Assembly (NCBI RefSeq): GCF_054482595.1 | Contig: NZ_CM137008.1 | Strand: one strand, 5' to 3' | Length of the DNA: 64,000 bases | Part shown: positions 7,469 to 51,097 of the stretch, piece by piece | How the letters are laid out: each line of letters starts with the position of its first letter | Numbering within the stretch: position 1 is the first letter of the stretch | Notes under the pieces: generated by a model | Database searches by the model: none | What the model was told of the DNA's origin: nothing | What the model saw: the letters and a program-made list of their open reading frames with translations, nothing else | Program-made: the position numbers and the translations under genes

Positions 7469-8503
7469 ATGAGTAACGCGATTACGATGGGGATATTTTG
7501 GCATTTGATCGGCGCGGCCAGTGCAGCCTGTTTTTACGCTCCGTTCAAAAAAGTAAAAAAATGGTCATGGGAAACCATGTGGTCAGTCGGTGGGATTGTT
7601 TCGTGGATTATTCTGCCGTGGGCCATCAGCGCCCTGTTACTACCGAATTTCTGGGCGTATTACAGCTCGTTTAGTCTCTCTACGCTGCTGCCTGTTTTTC
7701 TGTTCGGCGCTATGTGGGGGATCGGTAATATCAACTACGGCCTGACCATGCGTTATCTCGGCATGTCGATGGGAATTGGCATCGCCATTGGCATTACGTT
7801 GATTGTCGGTACGCTGATGACGCCAATTATCAACGGCAATTTCGATGTGCTGATTAACACCGAAGGCGGACGCATGACGTTGCTCGGCGTTCTGGTGGCG
7901 CTGATTGGCGTAGGGATTGTAACTCGAGCCGGGCAGTTGAAAGAGCGCAAGATGGGCATTAAAGCCGAAGAGTTCAATCTGAAAAAAGGGCTGGTGCTGG
8001 CGGTGATGTGCGGCATTTTCTCTGCCGGGATGTCCTTTGCGATGAACGCCGCAAAACCGATGCATGAAGCCGCTGCCGCACTTGGCGTCGATCCACTGTA
8101 TGTCGCTCTGCCAAGCTATGTTGTCATCATGGGCGGCGGCGCGATCATTAACCTCGGTTTCTGTTTTATTCGTCTGGCAAAAGTGAAGGATTTGTCGCTA
8201 AAAGCCGACTTCTCGCTGGCAAAACCGCTGATCATTCACAATGTGTTACTCTCGGCACTGGGCGGGTTGATGTGGTATCTGCAATTCTTTTTCTATGCCT
8301 GGGGCCACGCCCGCATTCCGGCGCAATATGACTACATCAGTTGGATGCTGCATATGAGCTTCTATGTATTGTGCGGCGGTATCGTCGGGCTGGTGCTGAA
8401 AGAGTGGAACAATGCAGGACGCCGTCCGGTAACGGTGTTGAGCCTCGGTTGTGTGGTGATTATTGTCGCCGCTAACATCGTCGGCATCGGCATGGCGAAT
8501 TAA
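7469..8503 (+). CDS. rhaT: L-rhamnose:H+ symporter
   Basis: 344 aa, [35 protein letters not shown]...; 10-TM DMT-type. Confidence 0.95.
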
Positions 8504-22143: not shown

Positions 22144-25100
22144 ATGCAGGTCAGCAGAAGGCAGTTCTTTAAGATCTGCGCTGGCGGTATGGCAGGCACC
22201 ACGGCAGCGGCACTGGGTTTTGCACCCAGCGTAGCACTCGCGGAAACCCGGCAGTATAAACTGCTGCGCACCCGCGAAACCCGTAATACCTGCACCTATT
22301 GTTCCGTAGGCTGTGGGCTGTTGATGTACAGCCTCGGTGACGGAGCAAAAAACGCCAAAGCATCTATCTTCCATATCGAAGGCGATCCGGATCACCCGGT
22401 CAACCGCGGTGCACTTTGTCCGAAAGGCGCTGGCCTGGTGGATTTCATCCACTCCGAAAGCCGTCTGAAGTTCCCGGAATACCGTGCCCCTGGTTCTGAT
22501 AAATGGCAGCAAATCAGTTGGGAAGAGGCGTTTGATCGCATCGCCAAACTGATGAAAGAAGACCGCGATGCTAACTACATTGCGCAAAACGCCGAAGGCG
22601 TGACCGTTAACCGCTGGCTCTCCACCGGGATGCTGTGTGCTTCCGCGTCGAGTAACGAAACCGGCTATTTAACGCAAAAATTCTCCCGCGCGCTGGGTAT
22701 GCTCGCGGTCGACAACCAGGCGCGTGTCTGACACGGACCAACGGTAGCAAGTCTTGCTCCAACATTTGGTCGCGGTGCGATGACCAACCACTGGGTCGAC
22801 ATCAAGAACGCCAACCTCGTCGTGGTGATGGGCGGTAACGCCGCTGAAGCTCACCCGGTCGGATTCCGCTGGGCGATGGAAGCCAAAATTCACAACGGCG
22901 CGAAGCTGATTGTGCTCGATCCTCGCTTTACGCGTACGGCGGCAGTGGCTGACTACTATGCCCCTATTCGTTCCGGTACTGACATTGCTTTCCTGTCAGG
23001 CGTATTGCTGTACCTGCTGAACAATGAAAAATTCAACCGCGAATACACCGAAGCCTATACCAACGCCAGCCTGATCGTGCGTGAGGATTACGGCTTTGAA
23101 GATGGCCTGTTCACCGGCTACGACGCAGAAAAACGCAAGTACGATAAATCCTCCTGGACTTACGAACTGGACGAAAACGGCTTCGCCAAACGCGATACCA
23201 CGCTGCAACATCCGCGCTGCGTGTGGAACTTGCTGAAACAGCACGTTTCCCGCTACACGCCAGATGTGGTTGAAAACATCTGTGGTACGCCAAAAGACGC
23301 GTTCCTGAAAGTCTGCGAATACATCGCAGAAACCAGTGCTCACGATAAAACTGCCTCGTTCCTGTATGCCCTCGGCTGGACGCAACACTCCGTTGGTGCG
23401 CAAAACATTCGTACGATGGCGATGATCCAGCTGCTGCTCGGCAACATGGGGATGGCAGGCGGCGGCGTTAACGCCCTGCGCGGTCACTCCAATATTCAGG
23501 GGCTGACGGACCTGGGCCTTCTGTCGCAGAGCCTGCCAGGTTACATGACGCTGCCAAGCGAGAAGCAGACCGATCTGCAAACCTACCTTACCGCCAACAC
23601 GCCAAAACCGCTGCTGGAAGGCCAGGTAAACTACTGGGGCAACTACCCGAAATTCTTCGTCTCCATGATGAAGGCTTTCTTTGGTGATAAAGCAACGGCG
23701 GAAAATAGCTGGGGCTTTGACTGGTTGCCGAAGTGGGATAAAGGCTACGACGTCCTGCAATACTTCGAGATGATGAAAGAGGGCAAGGTCAATGGCTATA
23801 TCTGCCAGGGCTTTAACCCTGTTGCCTCATTCCCGAACAAAAACAAAGTGATCGGTTGTCTGTCGAAACTGAAGTTCCTCGTCACCATCGACCCGCTGAA
23901 CACTGAAACCTCTAACTTCTGGCAGAACCACGGTGAGCTGAACGAAGTTGACTCGTCGAAGATCCAGACCGAAGTGTTCCGTCTGCCATCGACCTGCTTC
24001 GCGGAAGAGAACGGTTCTATCGTAAACTCAGGTCGCTGGTTGCAGTGGCACTGGAAAGGTGCGGACGCCCCAGGGATTGCGCTGACTGATGGCGAGATCC
24101 TCTCCGGTATCTTCCTGCGCTTGCGCAAGATGTATGCCGAACAGGGTGGCGCGAACCCGGACCAGGTGCTGAACATGACCTGGAACTACGCCATTCCGCA
24201 TGAGCCGAAGTCGGAAGAAGTAGCGATGGAGAGCAACGGTAAGGCGCTGGCCGATATTACCGATCCGGCAACCGGTGCGGTTATCGTCAAGAAAGGCCAA
24301 CAACTTAGCTCGTTTGCCCAACTTCGCGATGACGGTACAACTTCCTGTGGTTGCTGGATTTTCGCCGGTAGCTGGACGCCGGAAGGCAACCAGATGGCAC
24401 GCCGTGATAACGCCGATCCGTCTGGCCTCGGTAACACGCTGGGCTGGGCATGGGCATGGCCGCTTAACCGCCGCATTCTGTATAACCGCGCCTCCGCAGA
24501 TCCGCAGGGTAACCCGTGGGATCCGAAGCGTCAGTTGCTGAAATGGGACGGCACTAAGTGGACCGGCTGGGATATTCCGGACTACAGCGCAGCGCCTCCG
24601 GGTAGCGGCGTCGGGCCGTTTATCATGCAGCAGGAAGGCATGGGGCGTCTGTTTGCCCTCGATAAGATGGCGGAAGGTCCGTTCCCGGAACACTACGAGC
24701 CGTTTGAAACGCCGCTGGGAACTAACCCGCTGCATCCAAACGTTATCTCGAACCCGGCTGCACGTATCTTTAAAGACGACGCCGAAGCATTGGGTAAAGC
24801 CGATAAGTTCCCGTATGTCGGAACCACCTATCGTCTGACCGAGCACTTCCACTACTGGACCAAACACGCGCTGTTGAACGCGATTTTGCAACCAGAGCAG
24901 TTTGTGGAAATCGGGGAGTCGCTGGCGAATAAACTTGGCATTGCCCAGGGCGATACCGTGAAAGTCTCCTCCAACCGTGGCTATATCAAAGCCAAAGCGG
25001 TGGTGACCAAACGTATTCGTACGCTGAAAGCGAACGGCAAAGATATCGATACCATCGGTATTCCGATTCACTGGGGTTATGAAGGCGTAGCTAAAAAAGG

Positions 25101-25194
25101 CTTTATTGCCAATACGTTAACGCCATTCGTTGGTGATGCGAACACGCAGACGCCGGAGTTTAAGTCCTTCCTTGTGAATGTGGAAAAGGTGTAA
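22144..25194 (+). CDS. fdoG: Formate dehydrogenase-O catalytic subunit, selenoprotein; in-frame TGA at 22729..22731 read as selenocysteine
   Basis: Track ORFs 22144..22731 and 22780..25194 are in the same frame; reading through TGA gives a continuous ...AVDNQARV-U-HGPTVASLAPTFGRGAMTNHW... molybdopterin-oxidoreductase protein; Tat signal RRQFFK and Cys cluster at N-terminus. Confidence 0.93.
22732..22775 (+). other. Putative SECIS stem-loop directly 3' of the UGA-Sec codon
   Basis: Immediately downstream of TGA: local inverted repeat (GCAAG-tc-CTTGC within GGTAGCAAGTCTTGCTCC), in the position required for bacterial SECIS elements. Confidence 0.55.
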
Positions 25195-29262: not shown

Positions 29263-29553
29263 CTAACGGTTAAGTGCTTGCAGCACATGTTGCGGATCAT
29301 TGGCAATCGCTCGCAGCAAAGCCTTTGCAGGCCCGGTCGGTGAACGTCGCCCCTGCTCCCAGTTACGCAACGTGTCTACGCTTACAGAAATAAGATCGGC
29401 AAATTTAGATTGTGACAACCCTGAAGCGCGGCGTATTTCTTTGATTTTCATAGCATCAACTTCAAAAGTCCGCGAAGGCTGTCGCGTTCCTTCAATAATT
29501 TCATTCATCTGGGCCATGCTGTGAGTCAACCGCTCAAAAAGTGCCTTATCCAT
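29263..29553 (-). CDS. HTH-XRE family DNA-binding protein, putative HigA-like antitoxin
   Basis: 96 aa; C-terminal HTH (IKEIRRASGLSQSKFADLISVSVDTLRNWEQGRR); GAGGTGG RBS inside the upstream toxin gene; ATG directly abuts the toxin stop (TGG-TAA-ATG). Confidence 0.7.
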   Translation of the reverse strand: MDKALFERLTHSMAQMNEIIEGTRQPSRTFEVDAMKIKEIRRASGLSQSKFADLISVSVDTLRNWEQGRRSPTGPAKALLRAIANDPQHVLQALNR

Positions 29554-29865
29554 TTACCACCTCGTATTTAACAACCGGAGCATTGCTTTTTCCTGGGGAG
29601 ACAGATCATCTTTAATACCCTTACGATAAATAAGCAGTAATCTGATCTCATAATGTTTAACCTGATGAAAGTAAATAACCCTGACACCAGCACGTTTCCC
29701 CTTTCCTCCTGAAACCCATCGAACCTTTCTTAACCCACCAGTTTCAGGTATTACCTCACCATAGTCAGGATTCAAGGCCAGGAAAAACTGAAAACGACTG
29801 AATTCATCGTCGGTCAGCAGTTTTTGAACATCTTCAGTAAAAATTTCCGTTTCGATGAAGAGCAT
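29554..29865 (-). CDS. RelE/ParE-superfamily toxin, HigB-like (toxin encoded upstream of its antitoxin)
   Basis: 103 aa; pattern ...GGLRKVRW...GKGKRAGVRVIYF.....IRLLLIYRKGIKDDLSPQE... typical of HigB-type addiction-module killer proteins; gene order toxin then HTH antitoxin with zero spacing. Confidence 0.65.
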   Translation of the reverse strand: MLFIETEIFTEDVQKLLTDDEFSRFQFFLALNPDYGEVIPETGGLRKVRWVSGGKGKRAGVRVIYFHQVKHYEIRLLLIYRKGIKDDLSPQEKAMLRLLNTRW

Positions 29866-29902
29866 AATTATACGCCATTGGCTTAGAGTAACAATCCTTT
29901 TT

Positions 29903-29919
29903 GTACGTCATTGACGTAC
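29903..29919. promoter_or_regulatory. Perfect 17-bp palindrome GTACGTCA-t-TGACGTAC upstream of the toxin gene: candidate operator
   Basis: Located about 40-55 bp upstream of the toxin ATG, adjacent to TTGTTA-N16-TATAAT-like hexamers on the minus strand. Confidence 0.4.
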
Positions 29920-29986
29920 CCTTGAAACCACTAGCTTACTGATAGTGCTCCAGCAAAACCACGTCTCTGCCGGGTTTGTCTTTAGA

Positions 29987-30006
29987 TTTGCGAGGCGCTT
30001 TCCAGA
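29987..30006 (-). promoter_or_regulatory. Copy 3 of conserved 20-bp motif, about 120-140 bp upstream of the toxin-antitoxin operon
   Basis: tttgcgaggcgctttccaga; 18-19/20 identity to copies 1 and 2. Confidence 0.5.
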
Positions 30007-30093
30007 TTTTTCACGCCCGTGAATTTCCCTGTATCCATCCAGCAAAAACGGGTGTATAAGACTGTGCATTCATACAGCAAAATAAGTTCTACT

Positions 30094-31002
30094 ATGGCAC
30101 TGGAAAAAGGAATTGCAGAGTTAGTCGAAAAGTTTATCGCTGCGGGTCGCCCCTCATCGCGTCAACAAAGTATTGCGCAGCGCAGGGAGGGCTATATCGC
30201 CAGCGCTGTCCTTGCGGGTGAGACAGAAACGCGGGTAGATATTCAGACTATCGAACTTGAAGGGATGACCTTACGAATAGTGTCGCCGCTGAATGCCCCG
30301 ACATTACTCCCGACGATAATTTATTACTACGGTGGCTGTTTTGTTAGCGGCGGGTTCGCAACTCACGACAACCAGCTGCGCCAGTTAGCCTATTACGGGC
30401 AATGTCGGGTTATTGCCGTCCAGTATCGGCTGGCACCGGAACATACTTTCCCCGCCGCCCATGATGATGCGCAACGAGGTGCAGAAATAGTCTGGCAACA
30501 CGCCGAACGACTCGGCGTTGATAAACAACGTATAACTCTTGCCGGTGACAGTGCGGGCGGACATCTGGCGCTGGTAACTGCTTTGCGATTAAAGCGTGCT
30601 GGCGAGTGGCAACCGGCACAACTCATCTTAATTTATCCTATGCTTGATGCGACTGCGCATTTCGAAAGCTACATACGCAATGGTCACGATTACATCATCA
30701 CACGCGACACTTTACTGAGCGGCTTTGAGATGTATCTGCCAGGCATTGAACGCAGGCATCCTGAAGCCAGCCCTCTTTGGCGCGATGATTTCAATGGCTT
30801 GCCACCTGTACATATCATTACCGCTGAATACGACCCACTTTGCGATGAAGGTGAAGCGTTGTATCACCGCATGACAGGGCAAGGAGTGCAATGCACCTGC
30901 CAACGCTACCTTGGCGTTATCCACGGATTTTTTCAGTTAGGTGGTATCAGCGAGGCCGCGCGATCGGCACTACGGGATGTTGCCTGGAGAGCGGGAAGGT
31001 AA
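30094..31002 (+). CDS. Alpha/beta-hydrolase esterase/lipase, hormone-sensitive-lipase family
   Basis: Oxyanion-hole motif YYYGGCFVSGG, nucleophile elbow GDSAGG, downstream Asp/His (VIHGFF); start uncertain (ATG 30094 chosen; ORF opens at GTG 30019). Confidence 0.75.
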   Translation: MALEKGIAELVEKFIAAGRPSSRQQSIAQRREGYIASAVLAGETETRVDIQTIELEGMTLRIVSPLNAPTLLPTIIYYYGGCFVSGGFATHDNQLRQLAYYGQCRVIAVQYRLAPEHTFPAAHDDAQRGAEIVWQHAERLGVDKQRITLAGDSAGGHLALVTALRLKRAGEWQPAQLILIYPMLDATAHFESYIRNGHDYIITRDTLLSGFEMYLPGIERRHPEASPLWRDDFNGLPPVHIITAEYDPLCDEGEALYHRMTGQGVQCTCQRYLGVIHGFFQLGGISEAARSALRDVAWRAGR

Positions 31003-31019: not shown

Positions 31020-31048
31020 GAAAAGGTTTTCAGATTGAAAACCTTTTC
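31020..31048. terminator. Hairpin between convergent esterase and yiiD genes
   Basis: Perfect 13-bp stem GAAAAGGTTTTCA-gat-TGAAAACCTTTTC; symmetric, could terminate both converging transcripts. Confidence 0.6.
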
Positions 31049-31065: not shown

Positions 31066-32055
31066 CTACTCTTCTTCGTTCCCGCCCTCTTCATACGGGC
31101 CAAATGGCTTCGCGGGCAGAACGATATACGTGCCTTCAAACACTGCACCCGGCGTCTCGTCGCCAAAGATTTCAACTTGCATCTGCACCCGTGCTTTTCG
31201 TCCGCGCGCCAGACGGTCGAGATCGCCGCTTAAGGCACCAAGGTCGGCTACCGCATGAGGTTTACCGCTAATCGGCTTGCTGTAGCGGATATGCGCATCC
31301 GCCAGAATAATCGTTCCGCCGAGATGGCGTTCGCGCAGCATCAGCCAGATAAGCCCCCAACCGGTGAGCGTCGCCAGCGAGAATAAACTCCCGGCAAACA
31401 GCGTATGGTGCGGATTCTGATTGCCGGTTTCCGGCATGGTGGTGATAAATTTTTGCCCGGTATATTGTTGAATACGCACGCCCATTTTTTCACTAAGCGG
31501 GATATGTTCGTACCACGCCTGTTGCAGCTGCGCGCACCAGTCGCCGCGATGCAAAATATCATCCAGAGTGGCGACGGGCTTAATCATCAAAAAATGGCGA
31601 ATCGGCGTGGTGGTTGGCGTGGTGATTTCTCCCTGATTAACAAACCCCAGCTTGGCGAAAAACTCCACCGCGTCTTCACGGGCGCTACAGGTCACGCGCT
31701 TAACGCCTTCCTGACGCGCCACCGACTCCAGGGTCATCGCCATCAGCGTTCCTAACCCTTTGTCCTGCACGTCCGGGTGAACGGCCATAAAGCGAATGGA
31801 CGCTTCATTGTCGGCATTAATATACAGTCGGCCTACCGCCACCAGATTACCCTGCTCGTCGACGACCATCTGGTGATGCGCCATCGCATCCCACGCGTCG
31901 CGTTCCGAACCTTTTGGTTGATGCAGGGGCTTACGCAACATTTCCCAGCGAAACTGATAGTAACGCTCTAATTCTTCTTCTGTTTGTGGAACCCGAAGGT
32001 GATACATAGCGATACTCTCTCTTGTTTCCCGTGACAACCCTGGAAGCTGGCTCAT
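31066..32055 (-). CDS. yiiD: GNAT acetyltransferase fused to hotdog-fold thioesterase domain
   Basis: 329 aa, [44 protein letters not shown]...; I recall this gene having been renamed fabY, but that is from memory. Confidence 0.85.
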
Positions 32056-32489
32056 ACCTGCAACCAGAATGTCACGGGGCCATCATTGACCAGCGATACC
32101 TGCATATCGGCAGCGAAGCGTCCTGTTTGCGTGTTCATCTCTTGCTGGCGGCAGCGTTCGACGAAATAGTCATATAACGCCTCTGCGCGATCCGGTGATG
32201 CACCTTTGGAGAAACTTGGGCGCATCCCCCGTTCGGTATCTGCGGCGAGGGTAAACTGGGAAACCACCAGCACACTGCCGCCCGCCTGTTGCACGTTGAG
32301 GTTCATCTTGCCTTCGGCATCGCTAAAGATGCGGTAGCCGAGCACACGCTCGCACAGACGGTTTGCTTTCTGTTCGTCGTCATCCTTTTCGACACCCAAT
32401 AACACCAAAAGTCCCGCGCCAATTTCGCCCGTCACTTCTCCCTCCACGGTGACGCTGGCACGGGTTACGCGTTGAATTAATGCAATCAT
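32052..32489 (-). CDS. dtd: D-aminoacyl-tRNA deacylase
   Basis: 145 aa, [37 protein letters not shown]...; 4-bp overlaps with both neighbours. Confidence 0.95.
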
Positions 32490-33358
32490 GGTTCGTCGTC
32501 TTCTTCTTGTTCAGCTGCTTGTTTTAGTTTGCGGTATTCCCCGAGAGTGACAGTAATTTCCGCGCCAAGCAAGACGATACACCATGTCCAGTAGACCCAA
32601 ACAAAGAGAATGGGGATCACCGCCAACACGCCGTAAATGAGCTGATATGACGGAAACATGGTGATATAAAGCGCGAAACCTTTCTTTCCTGCTTCGAACA
32701 GGAGCGCGGCGACAAACGCGCCGACAATCGCGTCGCGGTTAGGTACGCGGATGGTAGGAACAATGCTGTACAGCAACCAGAAGGAGATCCACGACAACAG
32801 CAGCGGAAAAATACGCAGCACGTTATCGATGACAGTATTGAGATCGCTCGCCCAGCGCAGGGAGAGCAAATAGGAACTGATCGCCAGACTGGCCCCTGCC
32901 AGCAGCGGCCCCAGCGTTAAAATCATCCAGTACACGGCGAACGAGTAAATTTTTGGTCGCGCTCGTTTACTGCGCCAGATGGTATTCAACGCGCTATCGA
33001 TGGAGTACATCAGCAATAACGCGGTGACGATCAGCCCGCACGCCCCAACGGCGGTCATCTTGTTGGAATTGGCAACAAATTGTTCGATATACCGCTGAAT
33101 AACATCGCCAGTAGCAGGCAGAAAGTTGGCAAAAATAAAGTGACGTAACTGAATGCTGACGTCGGAAAACATGGGAAAAGCGGCGAAAAGCGCAAAAACA
33201 ACGGCAACCAGCGGCACTAATGAGAGCAACGACACATAGGCAAGGTTACCTGCCAGGGTTGTCATGTTGTCCTCATCAATGCGTTGCCAGAGTAGTTTTA
33301 GCCAGGCCCATAGTGGACGGGTACGGTGCCTGGCTTTGTCCTGAATGGTTTTTAGCAT
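32486..33358 (-). CDS. yihY: YihY/BrkB-family inner membrane protein
   Basis: 290 aa, six predicted TM helices. Confidence 0.88.
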
Positions 33359-33951
33359 AACACCTTCGCGAAATAGTCCGGGATGGTGGTTTTATCTTTC
33401 ACCAGAATACTGGTAATGCCCAGCTGATTGGCTCCTTCTATATTATCGGCGTTATCGTCGAAAAAGACCGTATCGCTGGGTGAAAAACCTTCCGCCTGCA
33501 AAACATGCTGGTAAATTCGTGCTTCAGGTTTGCGCATCCCCAGATCTTGCGACAGATAGATATGGTCAGCAGCATCACGAATTTCCGGGTATTCTTCCGG
33601 CCAGAAGGTGGTATGCAGGCGGTTGGTATTGGAAAGCACCACCACGCGATGCCCCTGCTCACGCAGTTTATGCATGATGGCGATCACTTCCGGGCGCAGC
33701 GCAACAAACACCGCCTGCCAGCCGTGAGAGAACTGCTCGTAGCTTAGCGGTAGAGCCATCTCATGACACAGCGCCTCTGCGAACGCTTCGTCGCTAATTT
33801 CCCCACGCTCATGCTGATGAAACGCCTCCCCCATATGAAAACTCTTCTTAAGCGATGCCAGCGGAATACGCGTTAAATCGCTCCAGGCTCCCAGCACACG
33901 GTTAAAGTCGATATCGACAATCACATTACCTAAATCAAAGATATAGAGCAT
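33352..33951 (-). CDS. yihX: HAD-family alpha-D-glucose-1-phosphate phosphatase
   Basis: 199 aa from [16 protein letters not shown]... (HAD motif I DxGxV); ORF opens 7 codons upstream. Confidence 0.88.
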
Positions 33952-34049
33952 TTTTGCCTCCTTTCGCGCCACAAGAAATTAACTGTAGCGGGAAAGGATG
34001 GGTTTGGCTATGTGGCAAGGTATGAAGCCAGGTTAACGGTCACAAAAAT

Positions 34050-34835
34050 CTACGCGTCTTCCTGGGGAAGAATGATTTCAATTTGGCTGTCTTGTAAGCG
34101 TGATTTTAGCGCAGCGGGCGGCAGCTCGTCGGTAAAGAGCGCAGTGACCTGTGCCACGTTACCAATTTCAACCGCCGCCGAAGCATGATACTTAGTGTGA
34201 TCGGCGACCAGCAGAATATTTCTCGCGTGCGCCATCATCGTTTTCACCACGTTAGCTTCGTTTACATCAAACTCCATCAACGCGCCATCGCTCTCAATCG
34301 CCCCAACGCTTGTTACCAGATAATCAGCACGAAAATCAGCCACAAAGGACGCCGCTGAAGGGCCAATGATCCCGCTATTATGAGAGCGCAACGTACCGCC
34401 GGGCACCATCACTTCAAAGCGCGGGTTGTGGTAAAGAATATGCGCCACACGCAGGCTGTTGGTGATTATCCGCAAATGATTATGGTTAAGTAACGCCCGG
34501 GCAACATGCTCAACAGTCGTACCAATGGTGATAAATATTGTTGAACCATCAGGAATATAGTCTGCCACCGCTTCGGCAATCGCTTTTTTTTCCTCGGTTT
34601 GCGAAACCTCACGCTGCTCGAACGCCGTATTAACGACGCTGGAAGCCCGACCCGCGCCACCGTGATGGCGCGTAATCAGGCCTTGCTCGCTTAATTTACG
34701 AATATCCCGGCGGACCGTCTGCGTGGAGACATCCAGCAGATTTGCCAGCTCATCAATATTCATATACCCACGCTCGGCGATCAGCATGAGGAGTTGGTCG
34801 TGCCGCGGGTTACCGGTTAGTTCGGTAAGGCTCAT
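34050..34835 (-). CDS. yihW: DeoR-family repressor of sulfoquinovose catabolism
   Basis: 261 aa from MSLTELTGNPRHDQLLMLIAERGYMNIDELANLLDVSTQTVRRDIRKL...; HTH plus sugar-phosphate-binding domain. Confidence 0.88.
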   Translation of the reverse strand: MSLTELTGNPRHDQLLMLIAERGYMNIDELANLLDVSTQTVRRDIRKLSEQGLITRHHGGAGRASSVVNTAFEQREVSQTEEKKAIAEAVADYIPDGSTIFITIGTTVEHVARALLNHNHLRIITNSLRVAHILYHNPRFEVMVPGGTLRSHNSGIIGPSAASFVADFRADYLVTSVGAIESDGALMEFDVNEANVVKTMMAHARNILLVADHTKYHASAAVEIGNVAQVTALFTDELPPAALKSRLQDSQIEIILPQEDA

Positions 34836-34868
34836 GAAAATTCCTCGAAAAACCATCACCCTGGCATT

Positions 34869-49273: not shown

Positions 49274-51097
49274 TTAATCGTCTTTCGGTGCGCGGTTGGC
49301 GCGACGACGATCGTTTTCCGTCAGGTGACGTTTACGAATACGGATAGAGGTCGGGGTCACTTCTACCAGTTCGTCATCATCGATGAACTCCAGAGCTTGT
49401 TCCAGAGTCATGCGGATAGGCGGAACCAGAACAACGGCTTCGTCAGTACCGGAAGCACGCATGTTGGTCAGTTTCTTACCGGTCAGGCAGTTTACAGTCA
49501 GGTCGTTAGAGCGGCTATGAATACCGATAATCTGACCTTCGTAAACTTCTGCACCGTGACCGAGGAACAGCTTACCGCGATCCTGCAGACCGAACAGCGC
49601 GAACGCGACCGCTTTACCCTGACCGTTAGAGATCAGTACGCCGTTCTGACGCTGACCCACTTCACCCGGACGTACGTCGTCGTAGTGGCTGAAGGTGGAG
49701 TACAGCAGACCCGTACCGGAAGTCATGGTCATGAACTCAGAACGGAAGCCAATCAGACCACGGCTTGGGATCACGTAGTCGAGACGTACGCGGCCTTTAC
49801 CGTCTGGATTCATGTTTTTCAGGTCGCCTTTACGTTCGCCCAGCGCCTGCATCACAGAACCCTGATGCTGTTCTTCAACGTCCAGCGTCACGTTTTCATA
49901 CGGCTCTTGTTTACGACCGTCGATTTCACGGAAGATAACTTTCGGACGGGATACCGCCAGTTCGAAACCTTCACGACGCATGTTTTCGATCAGAACAGAC
50001 AGGTGCAGTTCGCCACGACCAGAAACGCGGAACGCATCGGCGTCTTCGGTTTCTTCTACGCGCAGCGCAACGTTGTGTACCAGTTCTTTGTTCAGACGAT
50101 CCAGGATCTGACGAGACGTTACGAACTTACCTTCTTTACCGCAGAACGGCGAGGTGTTAACGCAGAAGAACATAGAAACGGTCGGCTCATCAACGGAGAG
50201 TGCCGGCAGCGCTTCAACGTTTTGCGTGTCGCAAACGGTGTCAGAAATGTTCAGTTCGCCAAGGCCCGTGATCGCAACGATATCGCCAGCTTCCGCCAGA
50301 TCGGTTTCGATACGTTCCAGACCGAGGTGGCCCAGCACTTTACCGACTTTCGCGTTGCGGGTTTTGCCTTCGCTATCGATGATAGTGACCTGCTGGTTCG
50401 GCTTCACTTTACCGCGCTTGATGCGGCCAATGCCGATAACGCCAACATAGCTGTTGTAATCGAGCTGAGAAATCTGCATCTGGAACGGACCGTCAAGGTC
50501 AACGTCCGGCGCAGGAACGTGATCAACAATCGCCTGATACAGCGGGGTCATGTCTTCCGCCATATCTTCGTGGTCCAGACCCGCGATACCGTTCAGCGCA
50601 GAAGCGTAAACGATCGGGAAGTCCAGCTGCTCGTCGGTCGCGTCGAGGTTAACGAACAGATCGAATACCTGATCCACAACCCAATCAGGACGCGCGCCAG
50701 GGCGGTCAACTTTGTTGATAACAACAATCGGCTTCAGGCCGTAAGCAAACGCTTTTTTGGTTACGAAGCGCGTTTGCGGCATCGGGCCGTCAAATGCGTC
50801 AACCACCAGCAGCACTGAGTCTACCATGGACATTACACGTTCAACTTCACCACCGAAGTCGGCGTGCCCCGGGGTATCAACGATGTTGATACGGTAATCA
50901 TTCCATTTGATAGCGGTGTTTTTCGCGAGGATGGTAATCCCACGCTCTTTCTCCAAATCGTTGGAGTCCATCACGCGCTCTTGGGTTTCGGCACGAGAGT
51001 CGAACGTACCGGATTGTTGGAGCAGCTTGTCTACCAGGGTGGTTTTACCATGGTCTACGTGCGCGATGATGGCGATATTACGCAATTTTTCGATCAC
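49274..51097 (-). CDS. typA: Ribosome-associated translational GTPase BipA/TypA
   Basis: 607 aa, [26 protein letters not shown]...; EF-G-like G-domain. Confidence 0.95.

Follow-up and report, generated by a model that had tools for sequence, protein, structure and literature searches.

In the trpE-trpD and trpB-trpA gene pairs of E. coli, consecutive genes meet in UGAUG or AUGA overlaps, translational coupling has been shown experimentally, and each pair encodes subunits of a single enzyme. The cluster described here lies on the minus strand at positions 31066 to 33951 of the 64-kb stretch of DNA that we analyzed (the window). Like the trp pairs, it has AUGA or AUGnnUAA overlaps and weak downstream Shine-Dalgarno (SD) sequences; unlike them, it encodes unrelated proteins, whose translational coupling is deduced from sequence features. 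The cluster is yihX-yihY-dtd-fabY (yiiD) of E. coli, which matches E. coli chromosomes with 100% identity over 3.2 kb and occurs in 5421 of 5426 complete genomes. Gene content, order and junction sequences are the same as in the K-12 yihXY-dtd-fabY unit of RegulonDB/EcoCyc, with no differences across the cluster, and the K-12 (b3885-b3888) and PGAP annotation tables agree on gene identity and order. RegulonDB lists a single four-gene transcription unit, yihXY-dtd-yiiD (used in PMC4421995), and the plausible co-transcription of yihX, yihY, dtd and fabY rests on this listing. The cluster is an ordinary, already catalogued housekeeping operon, and how often 4-nt overlaps occur in E. coli is likewise known. 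In the reading that we consider likely, the products of this E. coli housekeeping operon are unrelated, translation is coupled from yihX to yihY to dtd, and the main start of FabY is separate.

All of the cluster's proteins clear the Pfam gathering cut-offs in a profile search (Table 1). The original prediction had named a sugar phosphatase, a membrane protein, a D-aminoacyl-tRNA deacylase and a GNAT-thioesterase fusion, encoded in a tight same-strand operon with no obvious shared pathway. Pfam and RefSeq annotation confirm the four identities, and the description of the operon agrees with the single RegulonDB unit and with our finding no published link among the four activities. For the fusion, the GNAT part holds, while "thioesterase" is an older Pfam name for what is a hot-dog domain with malonyl-ACP decarboxylase function (MadA/FabY; Whaley et al. 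2021, PMC8666670). Among the described MadA/MadB malonyl-ACP decarboxylases, the last gene of the cluster encodes E. coli MadA/FabY itself, with a GNAT and a PF09500 hot-dog domain and without differences. Its Pfam matches are Acetyltransf_1 (59.3 bits) and YiiD_C (170.6 bits), and the C-terminal domain matches PDB 1T82. On identical sequence, fabY is annotated as 329 aa by the K-12 model and as 313 aa by PGAP; the GNAT fold starts at about residue 19 in the 329-aa numbering (PMC8666670).

Table 1. Features of the yihX-yihY-dtd-fabY cluster and its flanks (positions in the window)
Feature	Position	Strand	Description
Candidate operon promoter	33982..34010	minus	-35 TAGCCA (34010..34005), 17-nt spacer, -10 TACAGT (33987..33982); phylogenetic footprint
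SD of yihX, AGGAGG	33957..33962	minus	anti-SD duplex -11.6 kcal/mol, spacing 4
yihX	33352..33951	minus	199 aa; HAD-family alpha-D-glucose-1-phosphate phosphatase; Pfam Hydrolase/HAD_2, 65.6 bits; b3885 / WP_001295269.1
yihX stop / yihY start overlap, ATGCTAA	33352..33358	minus	7 nt; TAA 33354..33352, yihY ATG 33358..33356
yihY	32486..33358	minus	290 aa; BrkB/UPF0761-family inner-membrane protein, uncharacterised; Pfam Virul_fac_BrkB, E 4e-60, 204.1 bits; b3886
yihY stop / dtd start overlap, ATGA	32486..32489	minus	4 nt; direct sequence reading
dtd	32052..32489	minus	145 aa; D-aminoacyl-tRNA deacylase; Pfam Tyr_Deacylase, E 2e-58, 197.1 bits; b3887
Predicted RNA hairpin enclosing dtd stop and overlapping ATG	32033..32081	minus	predicted in E. 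coli (z -2.0)
dtd stop / in-frame ATG of fabY ORF, ATGA	32052..32055	minus	direct sequence reading and ORF list
N-terminal extension of K-12 fabY model	32008..32055	minus	16 codons; K-12 annotation; TetRP signal low (7.2/0/0)
Purine-rich motif AAGAGAGAG	32015..32023	minus	anti-SD duplex -5.1 kcal/mol, spacing 5
fabY (yiiD/madA), short model, main start	31066..32007	minus	313 aa from MYHLRVP; PGAP; TetRP +48
Hairpin 3' of fabY	31020..31048	minus	13 bp, perfect; 18 nt past fabY stop; between convergent genes; without U tract

The stop/start overlaps at yihX/yihY and yihY/dtd are real and of a very common kind, and the starts involved are well supported. Within the window, 8 of 40 same-strand neighbors overlap under the PGAP annotation (9 of 40 with the K-12 model), including the runs fdoH-fdoI-fdhE and frvB-frvX-frvR, and approximately 40-45% of same-strand pairs lying less than 50 nt apart do so. 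Among relatives, the yihX/yihY junction takes the -7 geometry in 20 of 50 loci and overlaps in any form in 32 of 50; the geometries seen are -7, -4, -1 and +3 to +174, with spacers of up to 174 nt in Yersiniaceae, Hafniaceae and Budviciaceae. The -4 overlap at yihY/dtd is present in 45 of 66 related loci from five orders, including those of Photobacterium, Vibrio (as GTGA), Aggregatibacter and Zophobihabitans, and the gap is at most 30 nt in 62 of the 66. Judged by this comparison, the yihY/dtd ATGA is an old and widely kept junction.

The neighborhoods of these genes in relatives indicate that the cluster was built piecemeal, with yihY-dtd as its old coupled core. Downstream of this pair, fabY is found in Enterobacterales and Vibrionaceae. 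The dtd-fabY spacer measures 70-150 nt in other genera, and Aeromonas has an inserted gene there. As a head gene, yihX occurs only in Enterobacterales and is absent from the cluster in Vibrionales, Aeromonadales, Pasteurellales and Orbales. The yihY gene has been lost from the cluster in Pectobacteriaceae and Morganellaceae, and distant dtd genes have other neighbors (typA, an alpha/beta hydrolase, tyrS).

Ribosome-binding signals differ sharply along the cluster. The only strong SD is that of yihX, with an anti-SD duplex of -11.6 kcal/mol compared to -3.9 for yihY and -1.9 for dtd, both at the level of the background (-2.9 +/- 2.6). An AAGGAG upstream of yihX is kept in all aligned relatives, and the annotated yihX start at 33951 is right, as AGGAGG lies 4 nt upstream while a longer GTG start at 33972 has no SD. 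Efficient ribosome loading would therefore be expected only at yihX. Because the yihY and dtd starts overlap the preceding stops and their SDs are at background, their translation most likely depends in large part on ribosomes that terminate on the upstream gene and then reinitiate. Two hallmarks of termination-reinitiation, a downstream start at or near the upstream stop and a weak SD of its own, occur at both yihX/yihY and yihY/dtd. A third, sequestration of the start in structure, is marginal at yihX/yihY (folding z -1.4), absent at yihY/dtd, where the region upstream of the dtd start is A-rich and unstructured (z +1.8), and present at dtd/fabY. We consider translational coupling from yihX to yihY and from yihY to dtd plausible on these features.

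The overlaps might instead be neutral by-products of genome compaction, with each gene initiating independently and zero functional coupling. Overlaps are frequent genome-wide, the yihX/yihY geometry drifts among relatives, FabY has a start and a ribosome-binding motif of its own (see below), and the A-rich, unstructured region before dtd can equally support SD-independent initiation. Against this, the exact yihY/dtd ATGA has been retained over large distances while its flanks changed, yihY and dtd have only background-level SDs next to the near-perfect one of the head gene, and a conserved hairpin and reading frame at dtd/fabY suggest selection on translation through that junction. Weighing both sides, we find it unlikely that the overlaps are without function.

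The third junction differs from the other two. The original prediction had linked all four genes by three overlaps into one coupled chain; all three motifs exist, but the third is an overlap only under the 329-aa K-12 model of fabY, and the dtd to fabY step is not the main route to FabY, whose start lies downstream of the dtd stop. PGAP places this start at 32007 (MYHLRVP), 44 nt past the stop. Tetracycline-inhibited ribosome profiling (TetRP) in K-12 (Nakahigashi et al. 2016, PMC4909307) lists yiiD among genes with the main signal at an internal in-frame ATG: initiation signals were 30.1/22.0/6.1 at the +48 ATG and 7.2/0/0 at the annotated ATGA (Table S2 of that study), and the gene was classed as "new site" and not "both sites". 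Conservation of the MYHLRVP ATG is universal, and upstream in-frame stops make it the sole possible start in many genera. An AGAGAG motif precedes it by 5-9 nt in nearly every Enterobacterales locus, regardless of spacer length, and the corresponding AAGAGAGAG motif is presumably the ribosome-binding site of the main fabY start. At the overlapping ATGA, the anti-SD duplex is -3.4 kcal/mol with a spacing of 0. We conclude that FabY translation begins mainly at the ATG 44 nt past the dtd stop, as supported by PGAP and the published profiling, and that the dtd/fabY overlap is mostly an artefact of the annotated fabY start. The disagreement of the K-12 model with both PGAP and TetRP illustrates that coupling deduced from annotation can reflect no more than the start codon chosen.

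That the upstream start retains some use is argued from our comparative analysis and not from the TetRP classification (PMC4909307). Between the NTGA and MYHL starts, the reading frame is uninterrupted in 33 of 35 loci with NTGA compared to 7 of 32 without it. These 67 loci are phylogenetically related, and a crude collapse to distinct states leaves 12/14 versus 6/29 (Fisher p = 1.3e-4). Amino-acid constraint on the 16-codon extension is weak, with an entropy per codon position of 0.43/0.64/0.67 versus 0.06/0.00/0.75 in the dtd tail. Additionally, the hairpin predicted around the dtd stop and the overlapping ATG has a consensus of 15 pairs in 18 Enterobacteriaceae, in which 93% of cells are paired compared to 29-43% with the partners slid. 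It includes one covarying pair (CG/UG/UA, never CA), and 0 of 500 shuffles match the observed score. Across the E. coli population the junction is nearly invariant and has no discriminating power. The hairpin pairs every base of the UGA and the last two of the AUG, and a ribosome terminating on dtd would open it. In this respect, the junction can be likened to the classical coupled trp pairs, with a start buried in structure that an upstream ribosome must open. Because the frame from NTGA is kept and the hairpin is conserved, the overlapping ATGA is probably a minor, coupled second start that yields an N-terminally extended FabY isoform. Hardly any of this long isoform may be made under laboratory conditions, because the TetRP signal at the ATGA is near zero. 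Frame conservation and the conserved hairpin make FabY a candidate dual-start protein.

An alignment of relatives shows a single conserved non-coding block, located before yihX. This TAGyCA-N17-TACAGT block, with an invariant CTTTCCCGCTACAGT, is kept in at least 24 Enterobacteriaceae loci regardless of the upstream neighbor, and in many genera it directly follows the intrinsic terminator of an unrelated gene. We infer that it works as a weak sigma-70-like promoter, and the invariance of its spacer may point to a function beyond that of a simple promoter. Transcription would begin at this site, about 30-60 nt upstream of yihX, with read-through from csqR as another possible source. In E. coli, the sequence before yihX is predicted to fold into a strong hairpin that sequesters the SD (z -3.4), but this structure is not conserved among relatives, so we read the block as a putative DNA-level promoter signal and not as an RNA element. 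The candidate promoter was missed by our default scan because its match to the consensus extends to only 8 of 12 positions.

If internal promoters, chiefly ahead of fabY or dtd, drove independent expression, the cluster would not be one expression unit and its operon listing would be nominal. The long dtd-fabY spacers of other genera and the gene inserted in Aeromonas leave room for promoters, and the main start of fabY translation is independent. However, the E. coli cluster has no intergenic gaps for a promoter, RegulonDB gives one four-gene unit, and the only conserved non-coding block precedes the head gene. On the coding strand between 30700 and 34300, zero sigma-70-like sites reached the scan threshold, compared to 2.7 expected on both strands, although a scan that misses the weak conserved promoter says little on internal ones. 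The promoter and terminator scan of the coding strand inside the cluster gave one weak terminator-like match and no others. No known RNA families or tRNAs were found in the region, and the SMRT-Cappable-seq supplements contained no match for the cluster genes. We regard separate expression from internal promoters as doubtful and continue to favor transcription from upstream of yihX.

It is most improbable that unbroken coupling of the four genes fixes near-equal protein amounts and so betrays a hidden functional or physical partnership: the three overlap motifs, the weak downstream SDs, the retention of the yihY/dtd overlap across five orders and the maintained frame from the ATGA into fabY are in its favor, but the main FabY start lies well past the dtd stop, whole families have no yihY or yihX in the cluster, spacers reach 174 nt at yihX/yihY and 150 nt at dtd/fabY, overlaps are common in operons whose products form no complex, and we found neither a published link among the four activities nor a fusion of Dtd with the other three proteins. 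The suggestion of stoichiometric co-expression is likewise without support, given that relatives lose yihY or yihX, that junction spacers vary so widely and that no shared pathway is known. Coupling links expression levels and fixes a ratio, without making it 1:1. With regard to shared function, we found only incidental mentions in the literature linking the four activities, a variable membership of the cluster and no Dtd fusions. The best 120 Dtd homologues are all single-domain, and the longer Dtd cluster representatives either are fused to Maf or have extensions without annotation, none with BrkB, HAD or YiiD_C. The supplements of Esquerre 2015 contained no match for the cluster genes, and the listing of Burkhardt 2017 includes only dtd among the four.

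A further idea, which we consider very unlikely, is that YihY cooperates with Dtd or, in a smaller variant, that E. coli makes two FabY isoforms, a coupled long one and an independent short one, that differ in regulation or in roles of the GNAT domain. If true, the first might involve handling or exporting the D-amino acids released by Dtd, and would explain why the exact yihY/dtd ATGA has persisted in Enterobacterales, Vibrionales, Pasteurellales, Aeromonadales and Orbales. The long-kept coupling of yihY with dtd is one of the few clues to YihY function.

Acid-shift induction lists include dtd and yihY. At the other end of the cluster, the perfect hairpin 3' of fabY was not called by the terminator scan, and may be the 3' end or a stabilizer. 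Further downstream of fabY lie an alpha/beta-hydrolase gene and a toxin-antitoxin-like pair, both additional to the gene content of K-12.

The four open reading frames of the cluster are correctly named. RefSeq lists them as yihX, yihY, dtd and fabY (old name yiiD; b3885-b3888), and all four Pfam scores far exceed the gathering cut-offs. Only the label "thioesterase" in the original prediction is outdated, as the C-terminal domain of YiiD is a malonyl-ACP decarboxylase (MadA/FabY) that permits FabH-independent initiation of fatty-acid synthesis (PMC8666670). Several E. coli chromosomes match a 3.2-kb query over the cluster at 100% identity, and the query was found in 5421 of 5426 complete E. 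coli genomes. Against strain XH990, only 2 positions differ over the window's first 32 kb. This is a known, ordinary operon: "yihXY-dtd-yiiD" is one of 47 four-gene operons in a 2015 study with transcription units from RegulonDB (PMC4421995).

Features of the cluster and its surroundings (window coordinates)
Feature	Coordinates	Strand	Basis or remark
ORF 1, yihX	33951..33352	minus	ORF list and sequence; Pfam HAD hydrolase
ORF 2, yihY	33358..32486	minus	ORF list and sequence; Pfam Virul_fac_BrkB
ORF 3, dtd	32489..32052	minus	ORF list and sequence; Pfam Tyr_Deacylase
ORF 4, fabY	32055..31066	minus	ORF list and sequence; Pfam Acetyltransf_1 + YiiD_C
Candidate promoter hexamers	34010..34005 and 33987..33982	minus	TAGyCA/TACAGT conserved block
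Abhydrolase_3 esterase/lipase-like gene	30094..31002	plus	Convergent with fabY; absent from K-12
103-aa protein gene	29554..29865	minus	No Pfam match; absent from K-12
96-aa HTH_3/MqsA-like "NadS family" protein gene	29263..29553	minus	Zero spacing after 103-aa gene; absent from K-12

Read from the sequence, the three overlap motifs lie exactly where they had been placed: ATGCTAA joins the yihY start to the yihX stop (33358..33352), and ATGA joins both the dtd start to the yihY stop (32489..32486) and an in-frame ATG of the fabY ORF to the dtd stop (32055..32052). By themselves, these motifs are unremarkable. The annotation of the 64-kb window has 40 pairs of adjacent genes on the same strand, of which 8 overlap (9 under the K-12 fabY model), and consecutive overlaps also occur in fdoH-fdoI-fdhE and frvB-frvX-frvR. 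The convergent genes rhaT (+) and rhaR (-) share a 4-nt overlap of their 3' ends at 8500..8503.

Classical translational coupling is recognised by a single strong site for ribosome entry at the first gene, with Shine-Dalgarno (SD)-poor overlapping starts after it. We estimated SD strength as the energy of the duplex that the 22 nt before each start form with the 16S rRNA tail; the background over every operon position was -2.9 +/- 2.6 kcal/mol. The values were -11.6 kcal/mol for yihX, -3.9 for yihY and -1.9 for dtd; the ATGA start of fabY scored -3.4 with a spacing of zero, and its main start -5.1. The yihX-yihY-dtd layout is the classical anatomy, from which we infer coupling, and in alignments with relatives the annotated yihY and dtd starts coincide at residue 1. 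Upstream of dtd, the sequence is A-rich and unstructured (z +1.8), which could be compatible with independent initiation too. Across a comparative set of 80 loci around dtd in other species, with the four genes mapped in each, 45 of 66 loci keep the -4 overlap of yihY and dtd, among them those of Photobacterium, Vibrio (as GTGA), Aggregatibacter and Zophobihabitans. This deep conservation is a mildly interesting hint at YihY function. The yihX/yihY overlap occurs in 32 of 50 loci, and a spacer of 48-174 nt separates these genes in Yersiniaceae, Hafniaceae and Budviciaceae. Of the proposed four-gene coupled chain, two links, from yihX to yihY and from yihY to dtd, are plausible, and fabY is mostly independent, with its main start off the overlap.

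At this third junction, the question is one of annotation. K-12 RefSeq begins fabY at the ATGA (329 aa), but PGAP, on identical sequence, begins it at 32007 (MYHLRVP..., 313 aa), 44 nt past the dtd stop. The MYHLRVP methionine is found in every mapped locus, preceded by a purine-rich AGAGAG motif that is conserved at any spacer length, and in many genera it is the sole possible start because in-frame stops separate it from dtd. The GNAT fold begins at residue 19 in the 329-aa numbering (Whaley et al., PMC8666670). Decisive evidence comes from tetracycline-inhibited ribosome profiling of K-12, which reported the +48 ATG (MYHLRVP) as a "new site" for yiiD, with read depths of 30.1/22.0/6.1 there and 7.2/0/0 at the annotated start (PMC4909307). 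Since most of the signal lies at +48, the main FabY start is not the dtd overlap.

The ATG overlapping the dtd stop is nevertheless probably not meaningless, as frame, indels, synonymous signatures and a predicted hairpin agree. The dtd stop creates an NTGA start in 35 of 67 loci; in 33 of these the NTG and the MYHL start share a reading frame (31 open), compared with 7 of the 32 loci that lack such a start, near the chance one-third. Collapsed to distinct start/spacer states, the contrast is 12/14 versus 6/29 (Fisher p = 1.3e-4). Within the clade that carries the ATGA, indel lengths are divisible by three (+3, -12), unlike those in lineages that lost the ATG. The 16 extension codons are only weakly constrained at the protein level: entropies by codon position are 0.43/0.64/0.67, versus 0.06/0.00/0.75 in the dtd tail. 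Some synonymous signatures are nonetheless present, with all four CTN codons occurring at Leu4 and Arg9 alternating between CGG and AGA. The dtd end and the first extension codons are predicted to form a hairpin (32081..32033) whose apical stem contains the ATGA. Across 18 Enterobacteriaceae, its 15 pairs are 93% paired, against 29-43% with partners slid, and 0 of 500 shuffles reached its score, although relatedness of the loci inflates both numbers; one pair covaries and C-A is never formed. We consider these figures moderate support for a functional overlapping ATG. Ribosomes terminating at the dtd UGA might open the hairpin, and a minority might restart at the overlapping AUG; selection would then keep this AUG in one frame with fabY. 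Of mild interest is the disagreement over where fabY starts, together with this evidence for a minor coupled start.

Upstream of yihX, an alignment of 24-27 Enterobacteriaceae is sharply conserved over one block, TAGyCA-N17-TACAGT, in which CTTTCCCGCTACAGT is invariant and after which comes an AAGGAG SD; farther upstream the genera have unrelated sequence, which often finishes with a clear intrinsic terminator. We interpret this block as a candidate weak promoter of the operon's own, matching 8 of 12 consensus positions and falling under the default scan threshold. That scan, whose threshold also misses the conserved block, reported no promoter-like coding-strand sites within the cluster. In E. 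coli, csqR and yihX lie only 98 nt apart with no terminator between them, so read-through is possible. There, the block can also pair with the yihX SD region (33959..33998, minus; z -3.4) through UCCUUUC/GAAAGGA plus CGCUACAG/UUGUGGCG, which would hide the SD in csqR read-through transcripts. This pairing is perhaps incidental, because it is not conserved in other Enterobacteriaceae. The adjoining csqR (yihW; 34050..34859, minus) has an ambiguous start: its longest ORF, from GTG at 34859, encodes 269 aa, and the RefSeq gene is 786 nt from 34835. A 2024 paper considers alternative starts for CsqR and a conserved Met25 (PMC10991401). After the fabY stop, where fabY and the alpha/beta-hydrolase gene converge, lies a perfect 13-bp AT-rich palindromic hairpin (31020..31048) with no U tract on either strand and no terminator call in the scan. 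No Rfam families or tRNAs were found in the region.

The cluster is a mosaic built around an old yihY-dtd core rather than a fixed four-part module. Among the mapped dtd loci, the full order occurs in Enterobacteriaceae, Erwiniaceae, Yersiniaceae, Hafniaceae and Budviciaceae. Lacking yihY, the cluster reads yihX-dtd-fabY in Pectobacteriaceae and Morganellaceae. In Vibrionaceae, Aeromonas, Pasteurellaceae and Orbales, yihY-dtd stands without yihX and with or without fabY; Aeromonas carries an extra gene ahead of fabY. In more distant bacteria, with dtd genes at 56-60% identity, the gene immediately before dtd is instead typA, an alpha/beta hydrolase or tyrS (loci L085, L087 and L088); in the window, typA (49274..51097) is only ~17 kb from dtd. 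The Dtd homologues examined included no fusions to BrkB, HAD or YiiD_C domains. Some organisms have a Dtd-Maf fusion of Tyr_Deacylase with a Maf-like nucleotide pyrophosphatase domain (proteins P0239 and P0230).

Stoichiometric co-expression of the four proteins, which the tight overlaps had suggested, is unsupported, and three points speak against it: FabY has an independent main start, cluster membership differs among families, and overlapping genes are frequent in operons that do not encode complexes. Our literature search yielded no paper that ties the four activities together; in a 2026 study of Salmonella YiiD, the GNAT domain is linked to cAMP levels and the neighbouring genes go unmentioned.

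The fabY-yiiE interval (29263..31002) holds genes that K-12 lacks, and the abutting 103-aa/96-aa pair looks like a toxin-antitoxin module. Finally, PGAP labels the first gene of the fdo cluster (22144..25194) "fdnG" (formate dehydrogenase-N alpha); as its neighbours are fdoH, fdoI and fdhE, the label is probably inconsistent and fdoG is meant.
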